This document shows, piece after piece, positions 3,717-20,750 of a DNA stretch of 32,000 bases. The notes beneath the pieces were generated by a model. The model did no database searches, was not told the origin of the DNA, and saw nothing but the letters and a program-made list of their open reading frames with translations. Position 1 is the stretch's first letter, and every line of letters starts with the position of its first letter. The stretch spans positions 120,001 through 152,000 of the forward strand of contig DIRZ01000002.1 of assembly GCA_002421785.1 (NCBI GenBank), written 5' to 3'. The translations under genes and the position numbers were made by a program. The DNA comes from Candidatus Saccharimonadota bacterium. Its GTDB lineage: Bacteria; Patescibacteriota; Saccharimonadia; Saccharimonadales; Saccharimonadaceae.

Positions 3717-3802
3717 TATACTCTAATTACTTCACGAATTCACCATACAGCGGATGAATATACTGGGTATTGCCAAGAAAAAACACCCCCATGGGGTGTC
3801 AT

Positions 3803-3829
3803 TTCTTGGCTCCGCTTACAGGTCACGGA
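3803..3829. repeat. Intergenic repeat, family A, copy 1
   Basis: TTCTTGGCTCCGCTTACAGGTCACGGA, preceded by the hairpin ACACCCCCATGGGGTGT with an A-run on its left. Confidence 0.8.
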
Positions 3830-3932
3830 ACAATTACAAGGGTGGCGAGACATAAACGCATGCTTTAGGGTTTGTCTCATTTCAAAGAATATTACCGAAC
3901 AAGTCCCGTTCTTGAATCGTGGCTTTATAACT

Positions 3933-3958
3933 GAAAGAAGGCCTTAAGGCCTTCTTTC
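3933..3958 (-). terminator. Perfect palindromic stem-loop just downstream of hsp20
   Basis: GAAAGAAGGCC-TTAA-GGCCTTCTTTC lies 20 nt after the hsp20 stop. There is no clear U-run. Confidence 0.5.
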
Positions 3959-3977
3959 ATGCAAGCACGAGCGGCCG

Positions 3978-4403
3978 CTATTTCTTCTTCGATGAGATAG
4001 CAATTTTCTTTGGCTCGGGCAGCGGTGTTAGCGGGATGCTCACTCTTAGGACCCCATCGTCGAGATGTGCTTCAATCTTTTCAGCATCTGCTCGCTTAGG
4101 AAGTGCAATGCGTCGATAGAAGCTACTTGAGCTTTCACGCACAACGTATTGCTTGCCTTTATCTTCCTCTTTTTCGTGACGCTCGGCACTAATCACGAGT
4201 GTACCGTTCTCCACTTCGATATTGACATCTTTCTGCTCAAAGTTAGGCAGATGCGCCTCAACCACAAGGTTATTATCTTTAGTAAAGACGTCAGTCGTCG
4301 GAATGTTAACGCCTTTTAGGGGCGACATCCAGTCATCACCAAAGAATTGTTTTTGTAATGCAGAAAGTTCTGCAAACGGATCCCACTTTACAAGGTTGCT
4401 CAT
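3978..4403 (-). CDS. Small heat-shock protein, Hsp20/alpha-crystallin family
   Basis: The alpha-crystallin domain is recognisable: VVEAHLPNFEQKDVNIEVENGTLVISAER...FYRRIALP...AHLDDGVLRVSIP. A CIRCE-bearing promoter lies upstream. Confidence 0.9.
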   Translation of the reverse strand: MSNLVKWDPFAELSALQKQFFGDDWMSPLKGVNIPTTDVFTKDNNLVVEAHLPNFEQKDVNIEVENGTLVISAERHEKEEDKGKQYVVRESSSSFYRRIALPKRADAEKIEAHLDDGVLRVSIPLTPLPEPKKIAISSKKK

Positions 4404-4464
4404 AATTTTCTCCTTTCATCATTGCATTAATGGTTTCCAGAGAAGCATAAAAGCTTCTATTTCT

Positions 4465-4502
4465 AATATAGAGAATTAGCACTCTCATGTCAAGAGTGCT
4501 AA
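4465..4502 (-). promoter_or_regulatory. hsp20 promoter with embedded CIRCE (HrcA operator)
   Basis: CIRCE TTAGCACTC-N9-GAGTGCTAA sits at 4476-4502. On the minus strand, TTGACA (4488-4493, inside the CIRCE spacer) is followed by N17 and TATATT (4465-4470). Confidence 0.8.
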
Positions 4503-4538
4503 TTTACGGATAGCTGCTAAACCTAAAAGCACATTGGT

Positions 4539-6680
4539 TTACCGATATTTTGTGTCAAAGTGAAACGCGTTGTTCGTATAATCGACCGTTACCACCGATC
4601 CTAACTGGATTGATCCGTCGATGATTCTTTTGGCGAGTTCATTGAGGATGCGCTTTTGAATGACTCGTTTTAGCGGGCGGGCACCAAATGCCGGATCATA
4701 GCCTTCGTCGGCAAGTGCTTGTTTGGCGCTCTGCGAAAACTCGAGCTTAATGTCTTTTGAACTCTCGACTTCTTTCAGAAAGGCCGCGAGTTGCATCTCA
4801 ATAATATGCTGTATGTCGTTTTTATCGATGCGATCAAAGATGACTATATCATCGATACGGTTTATAAATTCGGGGCGGAAATTGTGACTTAATTCTTGTT
4901 GCAAGCGATTTTCTAGTTCACTGAAGTTTTTACCGTCCCATTCCTGAATGTACTGCGAACCGATATTGCTGGTCATGATAATGATCGTATTTGAGAAATC
5001 GACCGTTCGGCCTTGACCATCCGTCAAGCGGCCGTCATCAAGTACCTGCAGCAATATATTAAATACGTCCTGGTGAGCTTTTTCAATCTCATCAAGCAAC
5101 ACAATACTGTACGGGCGACGACGCACTGCTTCGGTCAGCTGACCACCTTGGTCGTAGCCAATGTATCCTGGCGGCGAACCTATCAGGCGCGACACGGCGT
5201 GCCGTTCCATGTACTCGCTCATATCGATACGCGTGATAGCTCGCTCGTCGTCGAATAGCGCGACGGCAAGACTTTTGGCCAACTCGGTTTTACCGACGCC
5301 GGTCGGGCCAAGAAAGAGAAACGAGCCAATCGGTCGGCGATAATCGCCAATACCAGCCCGCGAACGGCGAATAGCATTTGCGACCGCTTCAACGGCACGG
5401 TTTTGGCCAATCACGCGCTTATGCAGGTCATCTTCGAGATGCGCAAGCTTTTGCGTTTCGCTTTCTTTAAGCCGATCAACCGGAATACCCGTCCATCTCG
5501 ACACCACAGCGGCAATATCATCTGCCGTCACTTCATCGCGGAGCAGGCGCTGGTCGGCCGGTATCGTATTTATTTGGCGCCTGAGTTCGGTGATATTTTT
5601 CTCTATTTCAGGAATCTCACCGTATTTGACACGACTTGCGGTAGAAAGGTCGCTCTCATTCTCGGCCATCTCGAGTTTGGTTCTGGCCGCTTCGAGTTTT
5701 TCGCTTTCGGTATTGAGCTTGTCTATCAAATTCTTTTCTTTTTGCCATTTCGCATCTAGCTCGTCAGCTTTAGCCTGAATAGTTTTGATTTCTTGCTCGA
5801 TTTCGGCTTTTCGCGCTTTGGCGCTGTCGCTTTTATCTTTTTTGAGCGCCGTTTGTTCAATCTGCAGCTGCATGATTTTGCGGTTTAACCGATCAAGTTC
5901 GATTGGCTTTGAATCAAGCTGCATCTTGAGCGCCGAAGTCGCCTCGTCGATAAGATCGACCGCTTTGTCAGGCAAAAAACGCTCGGTAATGTAGCGGTCA
6001 CTGAGCCGTGCTGCCGCAATAATTGCTTCGTCCAGGATTTTTACACCGTGATGGACCTCATATTTTTCTTGCAGTCCACGGAGTATCGCGACAGTATTAT
6101 CAAAGTCCGGCTCGCCCACATAGACAGGCTGCAACCGGCGCTCGAGTGCAGCGTCTTTTTCGATGTACTGGCGATATTCGTCGAGTGTCGTGGCGCCGAT
6201 TAAATGCAGTTTACCGCGCGCCATCATAGGCTTTAGCATATTGGCAGCGTCGACCGCACCTTCAGCCTTGCCAGCCCCAACAAGCGTGTGTATCTCGTCA
6301 ATGAATAAAATGATTTCTCCAGCAGCATCTTCAATTTCTTTCAGAACCGACTGCAGACGCTCTTCAAATTGTCCACGATATCCGGCTCCGGCGAGCAGAC
6401 TACTAATTTCAAGACCCACGACGCGTTTGTTTTTCAGGCTTTGCGGCACGTCACCTTTGACGATACGCTGCGCCAAGCCCTCAACAATAGCCGTCTTACC
6501 GACACCTGGCTCACCTATTAGTACGGGGTTATTTTTACTCCGGCGAGACAACACCTGCATACATCGACGAATTTCTTCGTCGCGGCCAATAACTGGATCT
6601 AACTTGCCTTCGCGCGCGAGTGCCGTAAAATCTTGACCAAATTGTTCGAGTGGTTTTTTTGTACTTTCTTGTGGCTGCAT
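4539..6680 (-). CDS. clpB: ClpB-type AAA+ disaggregase lacking the N-terminal domain
   Basis: Two AAA+ modules carry Walker [10 protein letters not shown] and GPTGVGKTE, with a long coiled-coil middle domain between them and GARPLKR near the C-terminus. The start is ATG 6680 (MQPQESTKK), 9 nt after GGAGG. The ORF-track start at 6722 lies inside the operator. Confidence 0.9.
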
Positions 6681-6704
6681 ATATCTATACCTCCTGTAGC
6701 TATT

Positions 6705-6742
6705 ATTATAGTAAATTAGCACTCTAGGTGCAAGAGTGCTAA
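6705..6742 (-). promoter_or_regulatory. clpB promoter with embedded CIRCE (HrcA operator)
   Basis: CIRCE TTAGCACTC-N9-GAGTGCTAA sits at 6716-6742. On the minus strand, TTGCAC (6728-6733, in the spacer) is followed by N17 and TATAAT (6705-6710). Confidence 0.8.
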
Positions 6743-6814
6743 TTTAGACAATTTGGTTGTAATCAAAAAACATCCATAGCGTGAATGCTTACTTGATATC
6801 CTATAAAATAAATG

Positions 6815-6841
6815 CTCTTGGCTCAGCTTACAGGTCACGGA
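6815..6841. repeat. Intergenic repeat, family A, copy 2
   Basis: CTCTTGGCTCAGCTTACAGGTCACGGA. Confidence 0.8.
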
Positions 6842-6979
6842 TCCTATAGTGATACAAGTAAAGGCTCTATTGATCCTAAAATCCGATAGTGATCTTCAGC
6901 TGACAATCGTGGAGCCCTCAGCTCCAATCAATAATTAAGGAGATGAGGGCTTAGTAGGTTGAGATTTACCGCTTGTTAA

Positions 6980-8602
6980 CTAGTACATTCCCATACCCGG
7001 AGCAACAGATGAAGAATCTTCCTTTTTTGGCTTTTCAACGACCAATGCCCCCATAGTCATGGCTGTACCTGCAATTGATACGGCATTCATAAGCGCCTCA
7101 CGGGTTACTCGTACTGGATCGATAACACCAGCTGCTTTCATATCAACGAGTTTAGTTGGATTGGTTACATCGATACCATACCCGGTCTTTGCTGATTTGA
7201 CCTGTGGCAACCATTCATCTGCGTTGAGGCCAGAATTTTTAAGCAAAATCGCAAATGGCTTTTGCAAGGCTTCAACCAAAAGTTTTTCTCCCGCGGCGAT
7301 TGCAGGATCGTCGCTTTTTATAGAATATTTAGTTGCGAGGTTGACGAGAGTGACACCGCCACCAGGAACAATACCTTCGACAAGCGCAGCTTTTACCGCG
7401 GCAACAGCATCATCGACTCGGTATTTTTTTTCTTCAATTTCGGTCTCTGTTGCACCGCCGACTTTTATCACAGCAACTTTTCCACTGAGAGCAGCGTGAC
7501 GCTTCATGAGATTTTGTTTGGCATATTGGCTCGTTTCGTCATCAGCCTGAGACTTTATAGTATCGAGGTGATCACTCAGTAATTTCTTATCACCATCGCC
7601 TTCGACAATTGTCGTTGAATCTTTAGAAACAATAACTTTTCGTGCCGAGCCTATGACACTTACGTCTAGCTCTTCAAATGATACATTCTCATCCTCAGCA
7701 ATCAAGTGCGCACCAACCAGTATCGCTATATCCTTAAGCTTGTCTTTATCAGTCGGTGATTTAATTGCGACGGTATTAAATGACCCCTTCAAGCTATTAA
7801 GTACGAGTAGAGCAAGTGCTTCTCCATCGACGTCACTCGCGATCAATACCAAATCTTTTTTGCCTGACTGAGCCACCATTTCGAGTACGGGGACGATCTC
7901 TTGTGCTGAACTGATTTTTTTGTCAGTGACAATCACTGCGGGCTTGTCGAGAATAGCTTGCATTCGTTTCGTGTCTTTTGCCATGTATGGACTGACAAAT
8001 CCGCGATCGAGTGTGTAGCCTTCGACAATTTCACTCTCAAGCTCGAGACTTCGTCCTTCCTCTACAGTTACCACACCATCTTTACCGATGCTATTCATAA
8101 CTTCAGCGATTTGTTGACCAATTTCACTATCGCCTGCAGAAATCGTTGCGACCTCAGCTATCCGAGACTTTTTGCCTTCGATTGGTTCAGCTAGTGTACT
8201 CAAGGTGGCAATAACTTCATTAGCAGCTCGCTCCAACCCCTTACGGATAAGCATGGGGTTATGGCCAGCAGCTATGAGTTTGTTAGCCTCCTTGAGGATA
8301 TTGTAAGTGAGAACAGTAACAGTAGTCGTACCATCTCCTGCAATATCATTCATTTTGTTTGCAGCCTGCTTGATGAGTTCAGCGCCTGTCTTGTAGCCTA
8401 ATGTTTCATCGGTTTCTTCGATATCAATACCCTTTGCGACTGTCACGCCATCATGGGTAACAGTTGGTCCGCCGTATTGCTTACTGATGACGACATTGCG
8501 TCCTTTTGGACCCATTGTGGTCTTGACGGCATCATAAAGCATCTCCGCACCACCGAGTATCCTACGGCGCGCTTCTTCGTCGTAAAAAATTACATTACCC
8601 AT
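6980..8602 (-). CDS. groEL: Chaperonin GroEL (Cpn60)
   Basis: The N-terminus ...[31 protein letters not shown] and the AGDGTTT nucleotide motif are present. The protein is 540 aa and ends in a short GMGMY tail. Confidence 0.97.
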
Positions 8603-8605
8603 ATG

Positions 8606-8881
8606 TTATTTACTCCTCACGAGGACACCCAAAATATCCTCGGCTTTGATAATTGTGTATTCGGTTTTTTCGATATCAACATTTGTGCCGGCATAGCTTT
8701 TACAAATTACTTCATCGCCAATCTTTAGTGTTTCTACGTCGTCAGCTACTGCCGCGACGACTCGAGCTTCTGTTTTTTCCTTAGCGGCGTCGGTAAGCAA
8801 TATACCTGATTTTGTCGTTGAATTTTGTTCTTTCTGCGTGAGTACAACATGACCAGAAAGAGGTTTGATAGGGACGTTCAT
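8606..8881 (-). CDS. groES: Co-chaperonin GroES (Cpn10)
   Basis: MNVPIKPLSGHVVLTQKE..., 91 aa, with AAGGAGG immediately upstream and the stop 3 nt before groEL. The ORF-track start at 9025 runs through the operator. Confidence 0.93.
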   Translation of the reverse strand: MNVPIKPLSGHVVLTQKEQNSTTKSGILLTDAAKEKTEARVVAAVADDVETLKIGDEVICKSYAGTNVDIEKTEYTIIKAEDILGVLVRSK

Positions 8882-8939
8882 ATATCCTCCTTGGGTATTT
8901 ATTGGTATTTCATCAGAAGAACCATGTCTTCTATGTCCA

Positions 8940-8977
8940 AGTTTAGCGAATTGGCACTCTAGCGTCAAGAGTGCTAA
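8940..8977 (-). promoter_or_regulatory. groES-groEL promoter with embedded CIRCE (HrcA operator)
   Basis: CIRCE TTGGCACTC-N9-GAGTGCTAA sits at 8951-8977, with one mismatch. On the minus strand, TTGACG (8963-8968, in the spacer) is followed by N17 and TAAACT (8940-8945). Confidence 0.75.
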
Positions 8978-9343
8978 TTTGCTAGCCCAGACTTGCTTAG
9001 CACCTTTAAAATAAGAAAATGTCACGTCACCACTTGCGCCAGTTACCCGGTTACGTTGAACAGTTAATGTTATGATCTATCAGAACCAGAGGGCATTAAC
9101 TCTGACACAACTTAGCAAGTTTGCATGCAGTGCTAGCGTTACGAATAGTTGCCGATTGGCATGTTTCGCCTCGCCCGTCTCGGCTATTATCTCTTCGGCT
9201 TTCTTCGGAGCATTAACAAAAAATGCATTATGCTTGGCGTCGCTGCCATCGCTCTACCACTTCTGCGCATGCAGTAGTGCAATATATTTCATGGTGTCAT
9301 TATATAAGAATTAGTCCAATATCTTCCTGTTACTGGCATCAAA

Positions 9344-9637
9344 TTACAAAAACTTCGTGAGTATTAGTGTGCTGATAAAAATAACGTAGACGACTAAGGC
9401 TGTGTACGCCAAAATTTTCGATAGATCATTTTTCTCTGTTATTGCCCATAGACTACTTGCTCCACCCAGTAGAATCCAGCAAAGCGAATGGCCGTACGTA
9501 AGAATTATTTTTTGAAGTCCGCTAGCACTTGATACCTCTGCGGGTATAACTTTGAGATAGATTACTGCAACAACAAAAGCAATTATTCCACCAATACTTC
9601 CGACTAGTTTGCGGTGCTTATCTAGATAACTTTTCAT
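9344..9637 (-). CDS. Small hydrophobic membrane protein, about 3 TM helices, unknown function
   Basis: The 97-aa ORF has three hydrophobic stretches. A hairpin plus U-run terminator of the preceding gene lies just upstream. Confidence 0.55.
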   Translation of the reverse strand: MKSYLDKHRKLVGSIGGIIAFVVAVIYLKVIPAEVSSASGLQKIILTYGHSLCWILLGGASSLWAITEKNDLSKILAYTALVVYVIFISTLILTKFL

Positions 9638-9707
9638 GCGTTAATTATAAATCAAAAGAAGTCCAGTAGTATGAATGCTTACTGGACTTCTTGTCACATA
9701 TATACTT

Positions 9708-9748
9708 TTGGCTCACAACAATAGAGAAAGTTATAACTGCGATTAAGG
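9708..9748. repeat. Intergenic repeat, family B, copy 1
   Basis: TTGGCTCACAACAATAGAGAAAGTTATAACTGCGATTAAGG. It follows the hairpin GAAGTCCAGTA-N11-TACTGGACTTC (9656-9688). Confidence 0.8.
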
Positions 9749-10303
9749 CTAACTACCTAACAAGATAGTTACCGTTCCACGGGCGTCGAGCGAATCCACT
9801 ATCCTCCAGAAAATAGCCATATCAAAATCGGGATGTTGGAATAGTTCGTTAAAATCGTCCAAATCGTTATGGTGCTCACGGCGAGAAATGAGTTTGAAGA
9901 CGGCGACCTTTTCGGCGGGTACAAGCGTTACTTTTATGTTTTTGAATGCTACGGGTACTGTCTCCGTTGGTGGGGAATGGTAAGAGTGGCCATCGATCTT
10001 GGATGTGTACCTATTAAGAAAGTCTACTGAACCATCATCAACGGGCGTTGATTTATTCATGCTATTGTATGGTCGCTCTATGTGCCGTGGCCCCAGGTTA
10101 AAAAGTGCATTTGCTCGATCAAATGCTTCGTCCGTAAACATGATGTCTACATCTTTTGGTTTACGATCATTACCCTGAACATAAAGAGCAACGCTTCCGC
10201 CAACGGCATAGGGGATATTAGCGCTATCGAGTTGCTCAAGAATAGATTCAAATTTTGGAAATGTAGCGATGACTTCTTGAAATCTTTTTACGTCCGTTTT
10301 CAT
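9749..10303 (-). CDS. Pol-beta-fold nucleotidyltransferase family protein
   Basis: GGSVALYVQGNDRKPKDVDI matches the minimal G[GS]-x(9-13)-D-x-D nucleotidyltransferase signature. Its size (184 aa) resembles small-molecule nucleotidyltransferases, and the substrate is unknown. Confidence 0.65.
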   Translation of the reverse strand: MKTDVKRFQEVIATFPKFESILEQLDSANIPYAVGGSVALYVQGNDRKPKDVDIMFTDEAFDRANALFNLGPRHIERPYNSMNKSTPVDDGSVDFLNRYTSKIDGHSYHSPPTETVPVAFKNIKVTLVPAEKVAVFKLISRREHHNDLDDFNELFQHPDFDMAIFWRIVDSLDARGTVTILLGS

Positions 10304-10365
10304 GCTATTACTATAGCAGAGCTAAGTTGTAGAACGGTTTCAGTTCTGGCTGGGGTATACAAAAA

Positions 10366-10391
10366 GTCAGAACCGAATTATCAGTTCTGAC
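10366..10391. terminator. Shared hairpin module T, copy 1 (bidirectional-looking stem-loop)
   Basis: GTCAGAAC-cgaattatca-GTTCTGAC, flanked by AAAAA on the left and TTTAT on the right. Confidence 0.6.
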
Positions 10392-10406
10392 TTTATCTAT
10401 TACGGC

Positions 10407-10447
10407 CTGGCTCACAACGATAGAGCAAGTCATAACTGCTATCAAAC
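10407..10447. repeat. Intergenic repeat, family B, copy 2
   Basis: CTGGCTCACAACGATAGAGCAAGTCATAACTGCTATCAAAC. Confidence 0.8.
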
Positions 10448-10469
10448 AAGATTTTGCTACAATCAGAAT

Positions 10470-11009
10470 ATGAAAATTACGTATTTCGTGCATTCAATCA
10501 CTGAAGATAACGAGAAGAGTCTTGCAACTGGATGGATGCAGGGCAAATTGTCCGAAGAAGGCGTAAAGCGTGCCCTTGCATTAAGACCAGACTTAACAAG
10601 TCGGGACTTTGATTCAGTATTTTGTTCTGATCTAGAACGTGCGTTACAAAGCACGGAGCTGTTTTTTGATAAAAAGTTTCCACTATTCATTGATTGGAGA
10701 CTCAGGGAATGCAATTATGGGAAATTTGACGGACTACCAGCAAAACAATTCAAAAAAGATCGTGAGCAAGAATATATTCAGGCAGGATATCCATCCGGAG
10801 AAAGTTATATGGAAGTAGAGTCCCGTATGAAAAGTTTTTTATCAGACTTGAGCCGATTTAATTATGATCATATTGCAATTGTCGCCCATCAAGCCCCACA
10901 GCTTGCTTTAGATGTGATTTTAAAAAATCAGACCTGGGAGGGAGCTATTGCAAGTGATTGGCGTAAATCGCAGTCATGGCAACCTGGATGGGAATATTTC
11001 CTAGACTAG
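10470..11009 (+). CDS. Histidine phosphatase (phosphoglycerate mutase-like) family protein
   Basis: The N-terminal YFVHSITEDN aligns with LVRHGETExN. CSDLERALQST and IVAHQAPQLAL match downstream family motifs. Confidence 0.7.
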   Translation: MKITYFVHSITEDNEKSLATGWMQGKLSEEGVKRALALRPDLTSRDFDSVFCSDLERALQSTELFFDKKFPLFIDWRLRECNYGKFDGLPAKQFKKDREQEYIQAGYPSGESYMEVESRMKSFLSDLSRFNYDHIAIVAHQAPQLALDVILKNQTWEGAIASDWRKSQSWQPGWEYFLD

Positions 11010-11046
11010 TCCGTCGGTTTCAATTCTACTTTGGGTTTATAAAAAG

Positions 11047-11070
11047 TCAGAACCATTTTCACAGTTCTGA
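11047..11070. terminator. Shared hairpin module T, copy 2
   Basis: TCAGAAC-cattttcaca-GTTCTGA, flanked by an A-run on the left and a T-rich tract on the right. Confidence 0.6.
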
Positions 11071-11078
11071 TTTCGTCT

Positions 11079-11119
11079 TTCTTGGCTTGACCCCCACTAG
11101 TGGACGTACTTCGTAACTC
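11079..11119. repeat. Intergenic repeat, family C, copy 1
   Basis: TTCTTGGCTTGACCCCCACTAGTGGACGTACTTCGTAACTC. Positions 11097-11118 are identical to 12523-12544. Confidence 0.85.
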
Positions 11120-11138
11120 AACTTTAAAAGCCGAGCAC

Positions 11139-11438
11139 TTACAACGCCTGAATCTTCTCAATCAATTCTGCGCGTAGTTCTTCCGCATTACTCGGGTGGA
11201 TTTCTAACTCGCCTGCGATAGTCAGTATTTTATCGATTGGATCAGAAGAATTTAATGATTGCGCAAAATCAGTAGACATTAACCCGGCAATTTCATATGC
11301 CGTCCCGGTTGCATCATTAATGTCACCGTTGAGCGGTGCGAGCTTATTTTTCAAAAATAAAATAAACTGAGTTCTCGTCTGTTCTGGAACATCTTGATTA
11401 TGTTCTTGAGATATTCTGTTCATAAAATGTATTGGCAA
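11139..11438 (-). CDS. Hypothetical small acidic protein (99 aa)
   Basis: An open frame 7 nt downstream of the preceding ORF, with no motif recognised. Confidence 0.5.
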   Translation of the reverse strand: MPIHFMNRISQEHNQDVPEQTRTQFILFLKNKLAPLNGDINDATGTAYEIAGLMSTDFAQSLNSSDPIDKILTIAGELEIHPSNAEELRAELIEKIQAL

Positions 11439-11445
11439 TCTAATC

Positions 11446-11772
11446 TTAGATCATATTCGACAAAATCTTAAGACTCTCCTCGGTATCTATTAAGTACTGC
11501 TCCCATTCGTTAGATCCAGTTCGCCTCGCTATTGCGTCTCGCTTAAAATCTACCGCCTCCCCGAGACTAACGCCTAGGTCTTCCTGAAATCCTTCTATAG
11601 ACTCACTGTACGTACTCGCTAAAACCGAGAACTCAGTAACAACAGAGCGTATCGCAGCTAAATCATCAACGTTATTCGCGGATTTCACTGCAGCACACAA
11701 GGCATAACCCCAATCTATAAGTAGCCTTTCGATGGCCGTGCTTTTTTGAAATCGTATATCCTCGACATGCAT
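11446..11772 (-). CDS. Hypothetical small acidic protein (108 aa)
   Basis: AAAGGAG lies 8 nt before the ATG and TATAAT is present upstream. No motif was recognised. Confidence 0.55.
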   Translation of the reverse strand: MHVEDIRFQKSTAIERLLIDWGYALCAAVKSANNVDDLAAIRSVVTEFSVLASTYSESIEGFQEDLGVSLGEAVDFKRDAIARRTGSNEWEQYLIDTEESLKILSNMI

Positions 11773-11848
11773 ACAGTGACTCCTTTGTGCTTTTATGTAT
11801 TATATATGAAAATGAGTCGAGTTAGCGTCCCGACTCAAGACGTGTAGG

Positions 11849-12175
11849 TCAGTGGCCCGGGCCAGTGTAGTGACCGCGGTCACCGTCAACGTAGCCGTCA
11901 TCCTCACGGTTGGGGCCGTAGTGGTTGTGACGAGCGTCGAACTGACGCGCAGACTTCTCGCCATCGGAGATGAGAGTGTGACCCTCATTGTCTCCCGTTC
12001 CTTGGCGGAACGTCACCTCCGTGCCGTCCGCCATGGAGCCGACCGTGCGTGGCGTCCAGCCGCCTCGCCTTCGACCGCGCCTGTTCTCCGCCTGCCTTAC
12101 GGCCCTCTCGAGCCCTGCAGTCGAAACCCAGACTCCGCCCTCGTCGTAGTAACCTGGTCCGCGTCCGCGTCCCAT
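11849..12175 (-). CDS. Hypothetical Gly/Arg/Asp-rich protein encoded in a GC-rich, foreign-looking patch
   Basis: Of five overlapping ORFs here, this frame has G/C-dominated third positions (gac, ggc, acg, cgc, tac, ttc...). ATG 12175 (MGRGRGPGYYDEGG...) is preceded by AAGGGTG. The ORF-track start at 12229 is a GTG. A hairpin GAGTCG..CGACTC follows the stop. Confidence 0.55.
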   Translation of the reverse strand: MGRGRGPGYYDEGGVWVSTAGLERAVRQAENRRGRRRGGWTPRTVGSMADGTEVTFRQGTGDNEGHTLISDGEKSARQFDARHNHYGPNREDDGYVDGDRGHYTGPGH

Positions 12176-12256
12176 CTGAACCACACCCTTTCGAGATGTT
12201 CGTGCATTTTCCTGCACGGAGATTGCCACACATTAGGCTCCGGTTGAAACCTGCTG

Positions 12257-12285
12257 ATAATATACTGTTTTTTGTATTTAGTCAA
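12257..12285 (-). promoter_or_regulatory. Candidate sigma-70-type promoter for the GC-rich gene
   Basis: On the minus strand, TTGACT (12280-12285) is followed by N17 and TATTAT (12257-12262), inside an AT-rich spacer between two GC-rich blocks. Confidence 0.4.
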
Positions 12286-12299
12286 TATTTCTGAAAACA

Positions 12300-12480
12300 G
12301 CGCCTCTGAACCGTCGACGCTTGGAATGACTACAATTCCGGCAGCTGGGATTCGGCTAAAGCCTCTTCCGCTTCGAAAGGAACGTGAGCAAGATTCCATT
12401 TCCTTTCTCCGCTACACCGAACCGCGACCATACGCGAGCGAACTCGCGCGGTCGCTAGCCCAAACTCAATATCGCAGCCA
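12300..12480. other. GC-rich non-coding segment with dense nested stems (candidate structured RNA, family unknown)
   Basis: On the minus strand: GCGACC-G-[CGCGAG-TTCG-CTCGCG]-TAT-GGTCGC, GAAAGGAA-N17-TTCCTTTC, GGAAT-N7-ATTCC, GGC-TTTA-GCC, and GGTTCGG pairing with CCGAATCC. No convincing ORF is present. Confidence 0.4.
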
Positions 12481-12486
12481 CGTAAA

Positions 12487-12507
12487 AACCCCACACAAGG
12501 TGGGGGC
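12487..12507 (-). terminator. Rho-independent-type terminator after the P-loop kinase gene
   Basis: On the minus strand, CCCCACC-ttgt-GTGGGG is followed by TTTTTA. Confidence 0.6.
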
Positions 12508-12512
12508 TTTAC

Positions 12513-12545
12513 GTGGCTCCCGCTAGTGGACGTACTTCGTAACTA
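12513..12545. repeat. Intergenic repeat, family C, copy 2
   Basis: GTGGCTCCCGCTAGTGGACGTACTTCGTAACTA. Confidence 0.85.
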
Positions 12546-12550
12546 TCGTC

Positions 12551-13084
12551 CTACGTCTTGAATGAATCATTACAGAAATTACTAGTCTCTATAATATATT
12601 CAATTGTTTCATCTAATGATGATTCTTCCGAAATGATTTTTTCATTATCATGAATTGAGCCATATTCATTGTTATAAAATGTTCGTAAGTCGTTCTCGGT
12701 GTATGTTGACGTATTTCTAGATGGCCTAGTCCTGTGACGCCTGATTGTTTCTTCGAGGCTAACATTAAAATAGTAGGAATAATTTTCCGTAGGGTGCTGT
12801 CTAAAGATTTCATTAAAGTCATTCGCGTATGATTTGGTGCTAAATATACCCTCTGCAATTACATCGTAGCCATCGCTAAGAGCCGTCAACACATTGTTTG
12901 TTATCATTTTGTGCATTGTAGCTGAGTTTTGCTTACTCCCGTGATCACGCGGGCGGAATATAAACCGATAATAGTCTTGCTCGATCAAACATGTATTACG
13001 ATTAGCTTTCTTGAAAAGTTCAGTTGCAACAGTGCTTTTCCCGGATGCCGAAGGACCTCTTAGGATTATTAGTTTCGATGTCAT
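12551..13084 (-). CDS. P-loop NTPase / small-molecule or nucleotide kinase-like protein
   Basis: Walker A GPSASGKST follows directly after the start (MTSKLIILRGPSASGKSTVA). The ORF-track start at 13126 adds an implausible leader. Confidence 0.65.
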   Translation of the reverse strand: MTSKLIILRGPSASGKSTVATELFKKANRNTCLIEQDYYRFIFRPRDHGSKQNSATMHKMITNNVLTALSDGYDVIAEGIFSTKSYANDFNEIFRQHPTENYSYYFNVSLEETIRRHRTRPSRNTSTYTENDLRTFYNNEYGSIHDNEKIISEESSLDETIEYIIETSNFCNDSFKT

Positions 13085-13139
13085 GACTATTATTATTACA
13101 CAAAACAAAAAACACTCTGTTTTCACAAAGTGCTTATGC

Positions 13140-13180
13140 TTTGCTCACAACAATAGAGGAAGTTATAACCACAATTAAGC
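13140..13180. repeat. Intergenic repeat, family B, copy 3
   Basis: TTTGCTCACAACAATAGAGGAAGTTATAACCACAATTAAGC. Confidence 0.8.
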
Positions 13181-13188
13181 GAGATTAC

Positions 13189-13677
13189 TTAGTTGTCTAG
13201 GTTCGTATTTTTAATGATATGAAGAATAGAATTGACCGTCTCATCAAGCGTAAGATCAGAGTTATCGATAATGTGTCCAAATTTGGGCGACGCAATGCCC
13301 CTATCGTAATGATGTTTTATTCTCGAAACTTCCCATTCTGATAACTCACGGTCGCCTCTTTTGCTTTGAGCTACTTCCAGACGGGGTGCTAGTGTAATGA
13401 CGATCTGAGGCTGAGTTTCGACTTCATTCTCAAAACGATCGAAATCTTTTTGTCGCACAACATAATTAGCGATGACGTCTTTTCCTTGTCTCGTAGAGTT
13501 ATTAATAGTCTGAATTGCTAAGTCCATGGACTTATCCAGATCGCTTGCAAGGTTAAAGTTTGGTATGGTGTCATTTAGGTCATCGACATTTACGAAAACA
13601 GCTCCGAGCTTCTTGGCTAAAGCTTTTGCTGTTGTAGTCTTCCCTGAATTAATACTACCGCTGATAAAAACTAACAT
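13189..13677 (-). CDS. P-loop NTPase / kinase-like protein
   Basis: Walker A sits at the N-terminus (MLVFISGSINSGKTTTAKALA). At 162 aa it is the size of a kinase fold. Confidence 0.65.
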   Translation of the reverse strand: MLVFISGSINSGKTTTAKALAKKLGAVFVNVDDLNDTIPNFNLASDLDKSMDLAIQTINNSTRQGKDVIANYVVRQKDFDRFENEVETQPQIVITLAPRLEVAQSKRGDRELSEWEVSRIKHHYDRGIASPKFGHIIDNSDLTLDETVNSILHIIKNTNLDN

Positions 13678-13731
13678 TACCCAATAATAACAAAGTCCAG
13701 CAGTTTCAGCTCTTAGCTACGTATACAAAAA

Positions 13732-13754
13732 ACAGAACCGAATTAACAGTTCTG
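13732..13754. terminator. Shared hairpin module T, copy 3
   Basis: CAGAAC-cgaattaaca-GTTCTG, flanked by AAAAAA on the left and ATTTTT on the right. Confidence 0.6.
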
Positions 13755-13767
13755 ATTTTTATATAAA

Positions 13768-13794
13768 TTCTTGGCTCCGCTTACAGGTCATGGA
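13768..13794. repeat. Intergenic repeat, family A, copy 3
   Basis: TTCTTGGCTCCGCTTACAGGTCATGGA. Confidence 0.8.
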
Positions 13795-13900
13795 CTTTGC
13801 AGACACTATTCTTGATATCGAGCCATAATTGACTTTGGTCAAGGAACTCCTGAGTAAACAGCCCTATAGTCATAGGTACTATCAAACAAAAGGAGTAACT

Positions 13901-14116
13901 ATGACAAGCAAAACCCTTCAACTACAAACCCTCACCTGCCCGAGTTGTATCAACAAGATAACTGCCGGCGTGAAATCACTACCGGGTGTCGAGCGGGTCG
14001 AAGTGCTATTTAATTCCAGCCGAGTTAAGGTCGACTGTGCAGAAGACACCTGTTCATATGAGGATATTAAAAACACCATCGAGCAGCTCGGCTACGAGGT
14101 GCTAAGTGAAAAATAA
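13901..14116 (+). CDS. copZ: Heavy-metal-associated (CopZ-like) metallochaperone
   Basis: A 71-aa ferredoxin-like HMA domain with the CxxC metal site LTCPSC. AAGGAG lies 5 nt before ATG 13901. The ORF-track start at 13829 is an upstream extension. Confidence 0.8.
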   Translation: MTSKTLQLQTLTCPSCINKITAGVKSLPGVERVEVLFNSSRVKVDCAEDTCSYEDIKNTIEQLGYEVLSEK

Positions 14117-15965
14117 ACTTCTGTCCAGCCTAGGCACTAGGCTCGCAGTTGCAGTCGGTCTGACTATATCTGGCTTGCTACTCAACTTCACCTATCCATC
14201 GCAATTTGTCAGCACATTTTTGCTTTTGCTGGCTACTATCATCACCGGTTTACCTATAGCACGTAATGCTCTTAGTGCTTTGCGCTACAAAGTGATCGGT
14301 ATCGACTTATTGGTAACAATCGCTGTGATTGGGGCGGTGTTTATTGGAGAGTACTGGGAGGCCGCCATCGTAGCTGTACTATTTACGCTAGGACACTACC
14401 TCGAAGCTCGATCGATCAAGAAAACTCGCAGCGCTATCAAATCGCTACTCGACCAGGCGCCAGATGTTGCTTGGGTGGAGCGTGATGGCGAAATCATCGA
14501 ACTACCACCGAACGAAGTCGTGCCGAGTGACGTCGTAGTCGTCAAGTCCGGTCAAAAGATTCCAGTTGACGGTGAGATTTCGGGCGGACAGGCTTCTGTT
14601 AACCAAGCTACTGTAACTGGTGAGTCGATGCCGGTCGACAAAACAGAGGGTGATTACGTTTATGCCGGAACTATCATCACCTCTGGTTACGTAAAAATAT
14701 CCGCTGAAAAAGTTGGTGCCAATACTATGTTCGCCCGAATCCTTGAGATGGTCGAAGACGCCCAAGACAAAAAAGCCAAAACTCAAGTCTTTTTAGAGCG
14801 CTTCGCCAGCTACTACACCCCGGCTATCATTGTCCTGGCAGTTACCACCTACCTGATCACTGCTGATATTTACCTGGCACTAACCTTGCTTGTTATCGCC
14901 TGTCCTGGTGCCCTGGTGATTGCGACGCCTATCTCGATTGTCGCCGGCATCGGTAACGGTGCCCGCAATGGGCTGCTGATCAAAGGCGGTGAGTCAATCG
15001 AAAATATCAACTCGGCGCGCGTAATCGCGTTTGATAAAACTGGCACATTGACCGAAGGACAGCCACGAGTCGTGTCGGTCGAGGCCTATGATGTAAACCA
15101 GGACGAACTGCTCACTCTAGCCGCCACCGCTGAATATTATTCCGAGCATTCGCTCGGTGCTAGTGTTGTTGATTTTGCTACCAAACAAACCGGGTCAACT
15201 CCAGCTGCGCCGCTTCATACAGAAGTCTTGACTGGCCTTGGCATCAAGGCTGAGACCGAGTCAGGCACAGTCTTGGTCGGCAATCGTCAACTAGTCCATA
15301 TGCATGACCTTGTGATCAAAAAATCAATCGAAGACCACTTACAGGCTCGAGAAGCCACTGGCGAGACAGCGATGCTAGTAGCCCGCGGCAAATCAATCAT
15401 TGGCGTTATTTCAGTAGCCGACCCGATCCGTACTGGTGCTAAAGATATGATTAAACAACTGCAGAAATCTGGCAAAAATATCGTTATACTGACTGGCGAC
15501 AACCAGCGTACCGCTGCGGCTATCGCCAGGCAACTTGAGATCACTGAAGTCTACAGTCAGCTCATGCCGACCGATAAGGTAGAGCATGTCGCCAGGTTAC
15601 AGAAAGAATACGGCAAAGTCATCATGGTCGGTGACGGGGTCAACGACGCTCCAGCTCTAGCTGCCGCCGATGCTAGCATCGCTACTGGGGGTGTCGGTAA
15701 AGACATTGCCATGGAAGTAGCCGATATCGTCTTGCTCTCAGGAGATGTTAGTAAGCTTAGCTACGCACTCGGCCTAAGCCGCGCGGTGGTGCGCAACATG
15801 AAAACCAATATATACTTCGCCGTGGCTCTGGTCATTATCTTGCTGATCGGCGTCTTGACCAAAAACGTCATCATGAGCCTTGGCATGCTGATTCATGTCA
15901 TCAGCGTGCTGCTGGTTATCATGAACGCTTCAAGGCTATTAAGGTATAGTAGAGACTATGCATAG
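14106..15965 (+). CDS. P1B-type heavy-metal-translocating ATPase without a fused N-terminal metal-binding domain
   Basis: TGES, DKTGTLT, TGDN and GDGVNDAPAL motifs are present. The TM6 motif reads ACPGAL (CPG, not CPC) and the nucleotide-domain motif reads SEHSL (not SEHPL). The GTG start overlaps the copZ stop. Confidence 0.9.
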   Translation: MKNKLLSSLGTRLAVAVGLTISGLLLNFTYPSQFVSTFLLLLATIITGLPIARNALSALRYKVIGIDLLVTIAVIGAVFIGEYWEAAIVAVLFTLGHYLEARSIKKTRSAIKSLLDQAPDVAWVERDGEIIELPPNEVVPSDVVVVKSGQKIPVDGEISGGQASVNQATVTGESMPVDKTEGDYVYAGTIITSGYVKISAEKVGANTMFARILEMVEDAQDKKAKTQVFLERFASYYTPAIIVLAVTTYLITADIYLALTLLVIACPGALVIATPISIVAGIGNGARNGLLIKGGESIENINSARVIAFDKTGTLTEGQPRVVSVEAYDVNQDELLTLAATAEYYSEHSLGASVVDFATKQTGSTPAAPLHTEVLTGLGIKAETESGTVLVGNRQLVHMHDLVIKKSIEDHLQAREATGETAMLVARGKSIIGVISVADPIRTGAKDMIKQLQKSGKNIVILTGDNQRTAAAIARQLEITEVYSQLMPTDKVEHVARLQKEYGKVIMVGDGVNDAPALAAADASIATGGVGKDIAMEVADIVLLSGDVSKLSYALGLSRAVVRNMKTNIYFAVALVIILLIGVLTKNVIMSLGMLIHVISVLLVIMNASRLLRYSRDYA

Positions 15966-16590
15966 TTGTTTAGTCAGAGTACCTATTTTTCAACACCTGA
16001 GCAGTGATGACATGGAGCATATTCATCAGTTCATCCGCCCAAAGCGCTTTGCTAAAGGCGAGTTTGTTCAACTGGCTAGTCATTATAACCCGGAATTACT
16101 GATACTTAACCGTGGCAATGTCAAAGTCTACCGCGGAGATGAAACCGGCACCGAGCAAGTTATCCGCTTGCTTCAGCCGGGCGACTATCTTGGAGAGGCT
16201 GCCGTATTTTCTGCACAAGCCGTCCAATACGATGCCGTGGCCCTAGAAGATTCAACCTTTTGCTCGCTCAGCAAAGATTATCTACATCAGATACTCCGCG
16301 GCAACCCAGAGCTGGCTATCAAGATCCTTGGCGACATGAGCCAGCGTCTACAGTCAGCCGAAACACAGCTCGAGTCACTTGGGCAAAAACCAGCTGAGCA
16401 AAGGCTCTTGAACGCCTTGCGCGCGTATGCTGGTGGTCAGACAACCTTCACCCTACGTATCAGTAAAAAAGACCTGGCCAGCCAAATCGGTGTTCGTCCT
16501 GAGACGCTGAGCAGACACCTTAGTCGTCTTCAGAAGAATAATCTAATACATGTAGATCACAAAACCATTACTTTTCTTTCGCCAAAATAA
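15958..16590 (+). CDS. Crp/Fnr-family transcriptional regulator
   Basis: An N-terminal cNMP-binding-type beta-roll (GDYLGEAAVF) and a C-terminal HTH (KKDLASQIGVRPETLSRHLSRLQKNNLI). The ATG overlaps the ATPase stop by 8 nt. Confidence 0.85.
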   Translation: MHSCLVRVPIFQHLSSDDMEHIHQFIRPKRFAKGEFVQLASHYNPELLILNRGNVKVYRGDETGTEQVIRLLQPGDYLGEAAVFSAQAVQYDAVALEDSTFCSLSKDYLHQILRGNPELAIKILGDMSQRLQSAETQLESLGQKPAEQRLLNALRAYAGGQTTFTLRISKKDLASQIGVRPETLSRHLSRLQKNNLIHVDHKTITFLSPK

Positions 16591-16612
16591 AACCTGCGAC
16601 TCAGTAGTATAT

Positions 16613-16639
16613 TTCTTGGCTCCCCATACTGGTCACGAA
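16613..16639. repeat. Intergenic repeat, family A, copy 4 (diverged)
   Basis: TTCTTGGCTCCCCATACTGGTCACGAA. It also shares GCGAGACAnA further right with copy 1. Confidence 0.7.
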
Positions 16640-16777
16640 CTTTTTAACGGGGGTAAAGCGAGACAAATGAAACACGAGAAGGCATATTTTCAGTTTGCAT
16701 CTAATAGACTAAATTTTTAGAATCTAAGCGTCTTCACATTTTCGTCTTCCATTATGGTCTATGCGTTTCTATCCTGA

Positions 16778-20738: not shown

Positions 20739-20750
20739 GCGGGAATAAAA

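Follow-up and report, generated by a model that had tools for sequence, protein, structure and literature searches.

In staphylococci, SCC/SCCmec elements and arrays of recombinase-less pseudo-SCC elements are located at rlmH (orfX) and are moved by the Ccr proteins, which are large serine recombinases (LSRs). Tandem accretion is also described for ICEs and IMEs, for example in the ICESt1/ICESt3 family of Streptococcus thermophilus, and the related cis-mobilizable elements (CIMEs) have an att site on either side but no longer possess integration genes of their own (PMC5704250). In Prochlorococcus, the tRNA-anchored islands named tycheposons have partial tRNAs of about 40 nt as att sites, often carry replication genes, and contain tyrosine recombinases in 910 of 937 (bioRxiv 10.1101/2020.12.28.424599).

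Here, we describe a 32,000-nucleotide stretch of Saccharibacteria DNA (hereafter, the window) whose repeated TGGCTC blocks are probably joints made by a serine integrase in stacking small gene cassettes at the tRNA-Asn 3′ end. As such joints, they would make the 13-kb stretch that they span a row of eight exchangeable cassettes, not a REP-like repeat.

Repeat sites in the window

The nine sites and three tail families proposed in an initial annotation were recovered by a repeat search, all of the sites being intergenic and in one orientation. Within the window, tail family A (27 nt, 85-100% identity) is found at 3803, 6815, 13768 and 16613, family B (40 nt, 83-100%) at 9708, 10407 and 13140, and family C (38 nt, 84%) at 11081 and 12507. 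The search also returned the hairpin block common to three sites (10362, 11042 and 13727) and the TGAATGCTTACT block common to copies A2 and B1 (6777 and 9667). On the minus strand, the order at each site is tail, GAGCCAAG, and hairpin with a U-run.

TGGCTC itself, which had been attributed to all nine sites, is exact in seven; C1 reads TTGGCTT (11081-11088) and B3 reads TTTGCTC (13139-13146). The 8-bp core also deviates at B2 and C2 (CCTGGCTC and CGTGGCTC), and the mutated cores, four out of nine (B2, B3, C1 and C2), may be fossils. Two copies had been reported to have no convincing stem, which holds for A4 (z +0.4) but not for B3, where a stem-loop with a U-run is found on the minus strand (13135-13110; -12.5 kcal/mol, z -3.1). 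Stem-loops are therefore present at eight of the nine sites and absent only from A4.

By itself, the short core is barely enriched, with 23 matches of the 6-mer or 8-mer against 14.8 expected, and 35 against 23 when one mismatch is allowed. The signal resides in the tails (18-45 nt) and the hairpin modules (45-90 nt), not in the short core alone. Since no site occurs at 1-3800, at 16700-32000 or in roughly 10 kb past the right end of the window, the elements are not a generic terminator context, an objection that the initial annotation had raised against its own reading.

Cassettes, modules and tails

All combinations of tail family and module family are found across joints, and the hairpin module had been regarded as a freely swappable part of a mix-and-match architecture. 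This architecture vanishes when the unit is defined as hairpin module, gene(s) and tail. Within non-redundant cassettes, M1 is found with A in 14 of 14, M3 or an LSR end with B in 13 of 13, and M2 with C in 4 of 5; the pairing holds in 31 of 32, a value reached by 0 of 100,000 permutations. Each hairpin belongs to the next cassette, where it co-varies and pairs with that cassette's own tail (M1-A, M3-B, M2-C). With the units re-phased and each module paired with its own tail, positions 3805-16622 therefore most likely represent eight cassettes, arranged head to tail on the minus strand with the common core GAGCCAAG (CTTGGCTC on the plus strand). All eight are recombinase-less, measure 0.6-3 kb, have both arms, and are flanked by att joints, like CIMEs and SCC arrays. 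The parts, from 16622 to 3805, are the following:

16615-16622, minus: core A4, whose minus-strand sequence is GAGCCAAG; the furthest upstream of the array's joints in the window, with no hairpin after it
16623-16677, minus: tail A4, a long A variant (..TTTGTCTCGCTTTACCCCCGTTAAAAAGTTCGTGACCAGTATGGG) that aligns with long-A tails of other species
13778-16614, minus: cassette 1, 2.8 kb, with tail A3 at its end; HMA protein, P-type ATPase and Crp/Fnr regulator, all on the plus strand (ORFs, Pfam)
13770-13777, minus: core A3, with tail A3 at 13778-13795 (repeat search, alignment)
13147-13769, minus: cassette 2, 631 bp core to core; M3 hairpin module 13700-13769, P-loop kinase 13189-13677, tail B3 13147-13185 (Pfam, folding, module-tail table)
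13139-13146, minus: core B3, degenerate (GAGCAAAG; repeat search, core comparison)
12520-13138, minus: cassette 3, 627 bp core to core; M2 hairpin module 13095-13138, AAA_33/zeta-like kinase 12551-13126, tail C2 12520-12544 (Pfam, folding)
12512-12519, minus: core C2 (GAGCCACG; repeat search)
11089-12511, minus: cassette 4, 1.4 kb; G+C-rich hairpin 12489-12505, small ORFs with no assigned function, tail C1 11089-11118 (ORFs, Pfam, folding)
11081-11088, minus: core C1, degenerate (AAGCCAAG; repeat search)
10414-11080, minus: cassette 5, 675 bp core to core; M3 module 11015-11080, histidine phosphatase 10470-11009 (plus strand), tail B2 10414-10452 (L028 match, Pfam)
10406-10413, minus: core B2 (GAGCCAGG; repeat search, L028 alignment)
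9715-10405, minus: cassette 6, 699 bp core to core; M3 module 10335-10405, nucleotidyltransferase 9749-10303, tail B1 9715-9752 (L028 alignment)
9707-9714, minus: core B1 (GAGCCAAA; repeat search, L028 alignment)
6825-9706, minus: cassette 7, 2.9 kb; M1 module 9645-9706 with the conserved hairpin loop GTAAGCATTCA, 97-aa membrane protein, CIRCE-groES-groEL, tail A2 6825-6842 (ORFs, repeats, folding)
6817-6824, minus: core A2 (repeat search)
3813-6816, minus: cassette 8, 3.0 kb; M1 module 6755-6816, CIRCE-clpB, CIRCE-hsp20, long tail A1 3813-3867 (ORFs, comparison with L028 and L018)
3805-3812, minus: core A1, last joint of the array, followed by a terminator hairpin (3782-3800) and a DUF2779 gene

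In L028 and L018, clpB forms its own cassette between two cores, and in L028 hsp20 is in a separate cassette. GroESL and clpB are odd cargo for mobile cassettes, and their presence in the array counts against such a nature.

The tails are conserved as primary sequence: the covariation analysis proposed in the initial annotation detected neither a conserved fold nor covariation in 30 A tails and 16 B tails. This type of conservation would fit protein-binding half-sites. No dyad symmetry was detected on testing the sequence around the core, where at best 33.5% of positions were complementary. In the M1 modules, the loop GTAAGCATTCACGC is conserved and the stems are variable. Together with the recurrence of the hairpins with conserved sequence, this would suit REP/BIME or IS200/IS605-derived hairpins moved by a Y1 transposase (RAYT or TnpA), an option that had been put forward for this locus. 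However, the elements are clustered in a single array rather than dispersed, are strictly unidirectional, and always adjoin the tRNA-like core; their tails have no conserved fold, no Y1 transposase or TnpB was found in the window, and the associated enzyme is an LSR. We give this origin almost no credence.

Exchange of cassettes between genomes

The gains and losses of cassettes are precise and bounded by the 8-bp core. Cassette 6 (9715-10413, the 699-bp nucleotidyltransferase cassette) is missing from CP011211 (L028), relative to which it is an insertion, and in the alignment L028 has a single junction, whose left part equals that of B2 and whose right part equals that of B1. Cassette 5 (window 10408-11081) matches L028 3600-4274 with 93.9% identity, with cores at both ends and different neighbours, and a 98.7% match of L023 to cassette 1 starts exactly at the core, at 13767. 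Where one copy of GAGCCAAG is present in L004, L015 contains an extra 515 bp with GAGCCAAG on either side, and this cassette is found elsewhere in L018 with 97.9% identity. A 3.9-kb block common to L006 and L014 also has cores at both ends. This comparison of related genomes, which the initial annotation had recommended, bears out its suggestion of recombination sites bounding gene modules: homology breaks exactly at GAGCCAAG, and the genes between copies are present or absent as whole units.

Such exchanges might also occur with no dedicated recombinase, if tails and modules acted as short homology arms in RecA-dependent or homology-facilitated swaps after natural transformation. Saccharibacteria are naturally competent, both tails and modules are conserved across species, and the window lacks a recombinase. 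However, new tail/module combinations need a crossover within the 8-bp core, and the same cassette has differing sequence on both sides, with only GAGCCAAG in common. Neither the module-tail pairing within cassettes nor an LSR fused at exactly the core is expected from homologous exchange, and we consider this explanation unlikely.

The core and tRNA-Asn

GAGCCA is the 3′ end of tRNA-Asn(GUU), and the core comprises the last bases of this tRNA (acceptor end ..GGA, discriminator G and CCA) plus 1-2 nt. The tRNA-Asn 3′ end as the common junction had been missed in the initial annotation. Genuine tRNA-Asn genes are located on the same strand as the sites in L006, L009, L018, L022, L024, L035 and L036; the 3′ ends that were read, including that of L036, stop in ..CCGGAGCCA(A/G) and are followed by the same hairpin modules as in the cassettes. 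In L024, L009, L006 and L022, the arrays start directly at tRNA-Asn. The exact 19-nt A motif is present in 29 loci, of which about 25 represent distinct species of Saccharibacteria, and is confined to one 8-kb locus per near-complete genome (relevant contigs of 0.9-1.0 Mb). Neither tRNA-Asn nor the LSR is found in the window or in roughly 10 kb past its right end; its tie to them is through homology of the sites only.

The tail and GAGCCA could instead form a tRNA-like 3′-UTR element located before the terminator, such as a processing or stability signal. In minus-strand genes, the block does lie after the stop codon and ahead of the terminator, and tails A and C are similar to tRNA-Asn from the T-loop to the CCA (17 of 24 positions for tail A). 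However, it has no Rfam or tRNA match, the A and B tails have no consensus fold, and the same block follows cassettes with opposite-strand genes (10470-11009; 13829-16590). Since it also leaves the cassette indels and the LSR fusion unexplained, an RNA-level origin is very unlikely; such a role could coexist as a secondary function.

A large serine recombinase at related loci

The LSR, which has Resolvase, Recombinase and Zn_ribbon_recom domains, is homologous to YokA of SPbeta and to the integrases of A118 and TP901-1. Of 120 homologues, 101 have a C-terminus (WL..DSN) that is the antisense translation of the tRNA-Asn 3′ end, with the fusion point at Ser-Trp-Leu (= TTGGCTC); in others, the part joined at WL is the antisense of tail A, B or C, or of an additional family, D. 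The LSR gene and tRNA-Asn share 42 nt in L035 and L036, where the far end of the element, 9.3-10.5 kb away, consists of tail B and the core. The same kind of element is inserted at a C-tail core instead of the tRNA in L041. L040, an 8,960-bp MEGAHIT contig, has an exact 141-bp terminal overlap and is therefore an 8,819-bp circle; it carries tail B, then GAGCCAAG, then the LSR 3′ end, an arrangement that constitutes an attP. For families A and C, no LSR was found that has a matching M1 or M2 arm, and none of the recombinase-less cassettes was seen as a circle.

An integron-like system, with a tyrosine recombinase encoded elsewhere and the sites as attC equivalents, would likewise produce an array of small cassettes that share one orientation and mostly carry one gene. 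The identical 8-bp core fits the overlap-region requirement of tyrosine recombinases, and the tails have stop codons built in. However, the sites show neither an attC-type imperfect palindrome nor a GTTRRRY core, and promoters and terminators appear to belong to the individual cassettes. A crude regular expression detected no box motif of tyrosine recombinases in 256 kb of array-bearing loci, as against four loci with the LSR catalytic motif. We regard this system as highly improbable here.

Proposed mechanism

In the serine-integrase mechanism that we favour, the core would be the crossover region of site-specific recombination, and the recombinase, at least for the B family, would be the LSR. 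The autonomous element, seen in the related loci, measures about 9 kb and integrates at the tRNA-Asn 3′ end, leaving the LSR gene converging on and overlapping tRNA-Asn, and tail B plus core at the other end. A cassette consists of a hairpin/terminator module, then usually its own promoter, the gene(s) and a tail. The module would be the left att arm and also terminate the tRNA or the preceding cassette, and the tail would be the right att arm. There are three end-pair families (M1...A, M3...B and M2...C). We infer that small cassettes are moved by the LSR acting in trans, being excised as circles and re-inserted at any core; alternatively, they may be carried along with a neighbouring element. 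The array would grow by repeated insertion at the tRNA or at secondary cores. To our knowledge, canonical LSRs recombine attP with attB only; insertion at attL-like or hybrid joints and trans mobilisation are assumptions of the model.

Comparison with known systems

Like integron cassettes (IntI/attC), the cassettes described here are small, have one orientation and their own recombination site at the 3′ end, and encode resistance-like enzymes, such as a nucleotidyltransferase and kinases. In contrast to integrons, no IntI and no folded attC were found, the recombinase is a serine recombinase, and promoters and terminators appear to be the cassettes' own.

CIMEs and accreted ICEs also form tandem stacks at the 3′ end of a conserved gene, with newcomers inserting at existing att sites. 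However, the units here are very small, often a single gene within 0.2-3 kb, and one core is common to at least three end-pair families, with tRNA-Asn as the target and an LSR as the enzyme; no conjugation module has been tied to the cassettes. Tycheposons are likewise tRNA-seeded islands, with small adaptive genes as cargo, in which successive integrations displace older elements further inward and leave partial repeats of the tRNA; here, identity is limited to about 8 bp, and the arms are family-specific sequences.

As in SCC, insertion of cassettes by an LSR leaves intact the housekeeping gene whose 3′ end is the target, and composite arrays with and without a recombinase have short direct repeats between cassettes. 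The differences are that the target here is a tRNA gene, that the cassettes are much smaller, that the LSR belongs to another lineage, with YokA/SprA, A118 and TP901-1 as its best solved relatives, and that its reading frame crosses the crossover point.

The repeat sites in the window

The hexamer TGGCTC, read on the plus strand, marks nine sites (A1 to A4, B1 to B3 and C1 to C2, named by tail family), and a repeat search recovers the tail families, as well as two shared blocks, where the initial annotation had placed them.

3803, 6815, 13768 and 16613: tail family A
9708, 10407 and 13140: tail family B
11081 and 12507: tail family C
10362, 11042 and 13727: hairpin block CAGAACC...GGTTCTG
6777 and 9667: block TGAATGCTTACT

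The single orientation and the intergenic position described there hold for nine of the nine sites, and two details are corrected. The hexamer is exact at only seven of them, C1 reading TTGGCTT and B3 reading TTTGCTC; of the two sites thought to lack a stem, A4 is indeed unfolded, but B3 has a hairpin with a U-run, so that eight of nine fold on the minus strand. Read on this strand, every site consists of the tail, the 8-bp core GAGCCAAG and the hairpin with its U-run, after which comes the next gene's promoter. The short core by itself is hardly over-represented in the window, the signal being carried by the longer tails and the modules, and no copies of the site are found in the remaining 19 kb, outside 3.8-16.6 kb of the window, or in L037, which extends beyond its right end. 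Since four of the nine cores are mutated, part of the array may be fixed.

Phage or T7-like promoters were rejected as a reading of the sites: the window, with a G+C content of about 46% and genes for Hsp20, ClpB, GroEL-GroES, a P-type ATPase, an MMPL protein and FtsK, is bacterial chromosome, and a phage match is absent. Sigma-70 promoters on the plus strand, with TTGGCT as the -35 box, were rejected as well, as only family B has a plausibly spaced -10 box and the genes run the opposite way.

The junction and the 3' end of tRNA-Asn

A scan with the 19-nt A motif, using one genome per species, gives 29 loci, about 25 of which are from different Saccharibacteria species, and the exact motif occurs at a single locus in each near-complete genome (contigs of 0.9-1.0 Mb). 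The likeness to REP/BIME elements proposed initially is not upheld by this distribution, which, with nine copies within 13 kb in one orientation and one exact-A-motif locus per ~1-Mb genome, shows no dispersal; a RAYT/Y1 transposase is also absent among the window proteins. IS200/IS605-type elements and PATEs have similar subterminal hairpins at both ends and insert 3' of a tetra- or pentanucleotide, whereas here the hairpin is at the left end only and the tails do not fold.

When every GAGCCA(A/G) copy is listed across the A-motif loci, some turn out to be genuine tRNA ends (...GGTTCGAATCCnnnnnCCGGAGCCA), and ARAGORN finds tRNA-Asn(GUU) in five of these loci (L006, L009, L018, L022 and L024), in which it is the sole tRNA. 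These genuine ends show that the junction consists of the tRNA-Asn acceptor end with its discriminator G and CCA. The tRNA and the sites lie on the same strand, the hairpin modules located 3' of the tRNA are the same as those in the cassettes, and the arrays begin at the tRNA, as in L024 (tRNA at 2958, A at 3158, B at 3866 and 4536) and likewise in L009, L006 and L022. By direct reading, 17 of 24 positions in the T-loop-to-CCA part of the tRNA recur in tail A (GTTCGTGACCTGTAAGCGGAGCCA), tail C retains GTTnCGAA...CCA...GGAGCCA, and tail B has only the core in common with the tRNA; GAGCCA(A/G)(A/G) is common to tRNA-Asn and the three tails.

Partial tRNA repeats follow tRNA-Asn in L006 and L022, and the tRNA-like tails A and C are also present. 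L022 shows that the tRNA-Asn site has been used repeatedly, with a second, degenerate tRNA-Asn-like sequence after an A joint (4470-4580) and two partial tRNA ends at 5266 and 5124 (..CCAGTCCCCGGAGCCA). In the window, neither a tRNA gene nor a known RNA family is found. A tRNA-like fold of the long A tail was discarded, hand pairing being poor and RNAalifold finding nothing. Viral contigs gave no match to the A motif, and their four matches to the tRNA-Asn end are all unrelated phage tRNAs.

Pairing of modules and tails

The hairpin parts of the sites fall into three module families.

M1: hairpin with the conserved loop GTAAGCATTCACGC
M2: CATAAGCAC...GGTGTTTTTG
M3: CAGAACyG...GGTTCTG

Across the joints, each tail family (tRNA, A, B and C) meets each module family, and the arms assort freely. 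The pairing was counted within the cassette, that is, the core-to-core unit of module, gene or genes and tail, and cassettes whose interiors are similar were counted once. M1 goes with A in 14 of 14 cases, M3 or the end of a large serine recombinase (LSR) gene with B in 13 of 13, and M2 with C in four of five, which places 31/32 pairs on the diagonal, a value reached by 0 of 100,000 permutations. The window pairs comprise M3 with B three times (kinase, phosphatase and nucleotidyltransferase), M1 with A twice (groESL and clpB-hsp20) and M2 with C once. The initial annotation took the hairpin as a swappable module, which does not hold within a core-to-core unit, where the pairing is almost perfect. 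The hairpin shared by three sites with different tails is real, but it represents the starts of three B-family cassettes rather than free mixing, and TGAATGCTTACT, correctly seen as common to A2 and B1, represents the starts of two A-family cassettes. Because the tails have no conserved fold and no covariation, they would fit protein-binding half-sites rather than RNA.

Gain and loss of cassettes at the cores

Each of the eight window cassettes is bounded by a core on either side and has a tail and a module, and the cargo includes kinases, a nucleotidyltransferase, a phosphatase, an ATPase and unknowns according to Pfam, as well as chaperones identified from ORF translations. Comparison of related loci shows how such units differ. 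L004 has a single GAGCCAAG at a position where L015 carries 515 extra bases between two core copies, and the sequences to either side are 98% identical in the two loci; the 515-bp cassette, which encodes a glyoxalase-type protein, recurs in a different context in L018 with 97.9% identity. L006 and L014 share a 3.9-kb block (96.8%) with a core at each end, and L009 and L024 have nothing in common beyond the tRNA and the first cassette, of 200 bp. Another example is the histidine phosphatase cassette of the window (10408-11081), which is 93.9% identical core to core to that of CP011211 (L028), with different neighbours. In a three-way alignment, one L028 joint stands against two in the window, its left side corresponding to B2 and its right side to B1, which identifies the 699-bp nucleotidyltransferase cassette (9715-10413) as an insertion between two cores relative to L028. 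In both cases (515 bp in L004/L015 and 699 bp in L028/window), what the occupied site has in excess of the empty one is precisely the element and a single core copy. clpB is a separate cassette in L028 and L018, and hsp20 of L028 is in another one. The suggestion of recombination sites bounding gene modules is thus borne out, as rearrangement breakpoints coincide with the elements in the L004/L015, L006/L014 and L028/window comparisons.

Some features of the window genes were noted on the side. In cassette 4, a stretch of locally high G+C content (11849-12247) has ORFs that overlap on the two strands, the minus-strand product being Gly/Arg-rich (..GRGRGPGYYDEGG..) and a Pfam match being absent for either ORF. 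The divergent genes with ATG at 10470 and at 10303 have candidate extended -10 boxes, TGCTACAAT (10448-10472) and TGCTATAGT (10304-10325), the last base of which is six bases ahead of the ATG, suggesting that their transcripts may be leaderless. Three CIRCE inverted repeats (TTAGCACTC-N9-GAGTGCTAA) at 4464-4506, 6704-6746 and 8939-8981, upstream of hsp20, clpB and groES, suggest an HrcA-type heat-shock regulon, the members of which are spread over separate array cassettes.

A large serine recombinase at the same junction

In L010, a large ORF with the domains Resolvase, Recombinase and Zn_ribbon_recom runs into the core; its relatives among the solved serine integrases in the PDB are YokA, A118 and TP901-1. 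An LSR of this composition adjoins the site in L010, L035, L036, L039/L040 and L041. The homologues number more than 1,700, with 68-100% identity for the best 120, the few with a named source being from Saccharibacteria. The C-terminus reads ...SWL(R)..DSN.RP in 101 of these best 120, which is the antisense translation of TGG CTC CGG ... GAT TCG AAC C.., the tRNA-Asn 3' end. In the remaining ones, the fusion point is again this W-L, and what follows it is the antisense of tail A (WLCLQVTD), B (WLPVIEEVIT), C (WL.LVDVLR) or a further family, D.

The geometry of the LSR elements is of the same kind. In L035/L036, the LSR gene (10001-11638, plus strand) overlaps tRNA-Asn (11597-11671, minus strand) by 42 nt, and the next core, preceded by a B tail, is 9.3-10.5 kb off. 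In L041, such an element is inserted at the core of a C tail instead of the tRNA, and its end is again a B tail. L040 is an 8,960-bp MEGAHIT contig, the first 141 bases of which equal the last 141, and these identical ends mark it as a circular element of 8,819 bp; it carries an attP, namely tail B, GAGCCAAG and the LSR 3' end in this order, and L039 holds two tandem copies of the element. The circular attP form is seen for the LSR-bearing element only. Together, the C-terminal fusions and the arrangements in L035/L036, L041 and L040 point to the TGGCTC junction as the predicted crossover region of this integrase, in which tail B would be the element-borne arm and tRNA-Asn and the tRNA-like tails the chromosomal arms. 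The search for dyad symmetry around the core gives 33.5% complementary positions at the best centre, close to background, and AG dominates everywhere at core positions 7-8, which does not fix the crossover position. B tails pair with either M3 or the LSR end; the similarity between M3 and this end is limited to GGTTCTRAC, located about equally far from the core, and is too weak for a claim of homology. A second LSR, 33% identical, adjoins a long-A tail in L019.

As a further observation, the LSR ORF crosses the predicted crossover point, its last 10-30 residues being set by the partner arm (homologues P0001-P0120; L010 7280-7400; L040 1700-1820). In the antisense frame, 16 B tails give WLTTIEEVITxIKxD, with a variability of 0.32 at the third codon position versus 0.14 and 0.11 at the first two, which hints that the B tail codes for a different C-terminus of the integrase; the third positions coincide with those of one sense frame, and the periodicity alone is insufficient.

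The cargo of L040/L039 consists of the LSR, an EcoRI-type methylase, a GmrSD/HNH nuclease, a DUF4268 protein and a small HTH_17 protein; the 8.8-kb element looks like a mobile restriction-modification/defence module, and the L041 element carries an AlwI-type restriction system. A protein of ~155 aa (MSDNEQ...), with a zinc-finger-like CxxC and a C-terminal, excisionase-type HTH_17, is found in L003, L010, L011, L016, L019 and L021, adjoining long-A tails and always divergent from them (e.g., L011 4880-5350); it is a candidate directionality factor or regulator.

Surroundings of the array

No LSR was matched in the window by tblastn, and LSR and tRNA-Asn are both absent from it and from ~10 kb past its right end. 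Extension by the 691-aa window ORF found no record, the DUF2779 protein retrieves a single 2.6-kb contig only, and the SNF2 protein leads to L037, in which defence genes are present, with no tRNA or core. The region upstream of A4, with MMPL, FtsK, DUF2779, SNF2-PLD and DUF1156/DUF3780/DUF499 genes, may be one large element or unrelated DNA.

A defence-island-like cluster spans window 27130-32000 and L037 1-10000, with DUF499, DUF3780, DUF1156 (cut by the window end) and an SNF2 helicase-PLD nuclease fusion, and a ParB-methylase and a terminase-like gene are located further upstream. DUF2779 (PD-(D/E)XK / RNase H-like) paralogues occur at 2352-3716 and 25342-26703 (77% identity in the first 300 nt compared); one of them is located directly after the last joint of the array, and homologues are near arrays in L015, L017 and L021. 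Genes for a TerY_C-like zinc protein, an FtsK/SpoIIIE ATPase and a small HAD-like protein, which are upstream of A4 in the window (21058-23994, 24686-25201) and beside a long-A tail in L011 (1223-3550), may be parts of a larger integrative element.

Proposed mechanism and significance

The proposed mechanism takes as established that the core corresponds to the tRNA-Asn end, that LSR elements sit at this core and also at a secondary one, that circles have tail B in their attP, that cassettes are gained and lost exactly at cores, and that end pairs are family-specific. The cassettes that have no recombinase would be excised and re-inserted by the LSR in trans or, alternatively, carried along with a neighbour in the fashion of cis-mobilizable elements (CIMEs). 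The hairpin module would also be a terminator, which the element must bring because insertion parts the tRNA or the previous gene from its own, and the cassettes would have their own promoters, such as TGnTAnAAT, seven bases ahead of the ATG at 10470 and at 10303 in the sequence reading.

Taken as a whole, an integron-like cassette platform that is run by a serine integrase, moves even groESL and clpB, and has the integrase C-terminus rewritten at each recombination is a tentative proposal, regarded as rather unlikely in this full form. One 8-bp core, the tRNA-Asn end, would serve at least three miniature, recombinase-less families with cognate end pairs, and the C-terminal 10-30 residues would read ..WLRGLDSNQRP in the tRNA-antisense state, WLTTIEEVITxIKxD with tail B and WL.L.D.LRT...IKE.L. 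with tails C/D. The rewritten C-terminus would be a state-dependent switch and could set the direction of the reaction, a testable idea for direction control.

The cassette system would explain accessory-gene exchange at one defined chromosomal site in ~1-Mb genomes with few known mobile elements, the cargo here being resistance-like kinases and a nucleotidyltransferase, a metal pump and heat-shock genes. Genetic manipulation of Saccharibacteria is very hard, and the tRNA-Asn 3' end as a natural landing pad, together with candidate attP/attB sites and a matching serine integrase, could become genetic tools. For annotation, the variable region would be cut at GAGCCAAG, each unit being module, gene and tail.

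Comparison with known systems

Literature searches turned up no description of such a system in Saccharibacteria. Among the closest concepts are integrons, yet no IntI lies beside the array, the genes adjoining tRNA-Asn being SmpB-like or LexA-like, and a crude regular expression finds no tyrosine-recombinase motif in 256 kb of array-bearing loci. The array is also unlike the integron attC, for which an imperfect inverted repeat and RYYYAAC / GTTRRRY core sites are characteristic: its tails have no conserved pairing, and its core is GAGCCAAG. Tycheposons are tRNA-anchored islands with full and partial tRNA repeats, as are the related arrays of L006 and L022, but their hallmark is mostly a tyrosine integrase and a replication module (bioRxiv 10.1101/2020.12.28.424599). 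The LSR elements of L036, L040 and L041 differ from this, carrying restriction-modification and other cargo, with neither a primase nor a replicative helicase among the listed Pfam matches.

CIMEs are att-flanked elements without integration or transfer genes that arise when an autonomous element decays and that are carried with a neighbour (PMC5704250), and the window cassettes resemble them in being att-flanked and in the absence of a recombinase by Pfam and ORFs. The Saccharibacteria array works like CIMEs with tandem accretion and like the SCC arrays moved by Ccr serine recombinases; it differs from both in its target, which is a tRNA, in the several end-pair families on one core, in the very small size of the cassettes, in an integrase ORF that spans the predicted crossover, and in its lineage (CPR), which is new for such systems.
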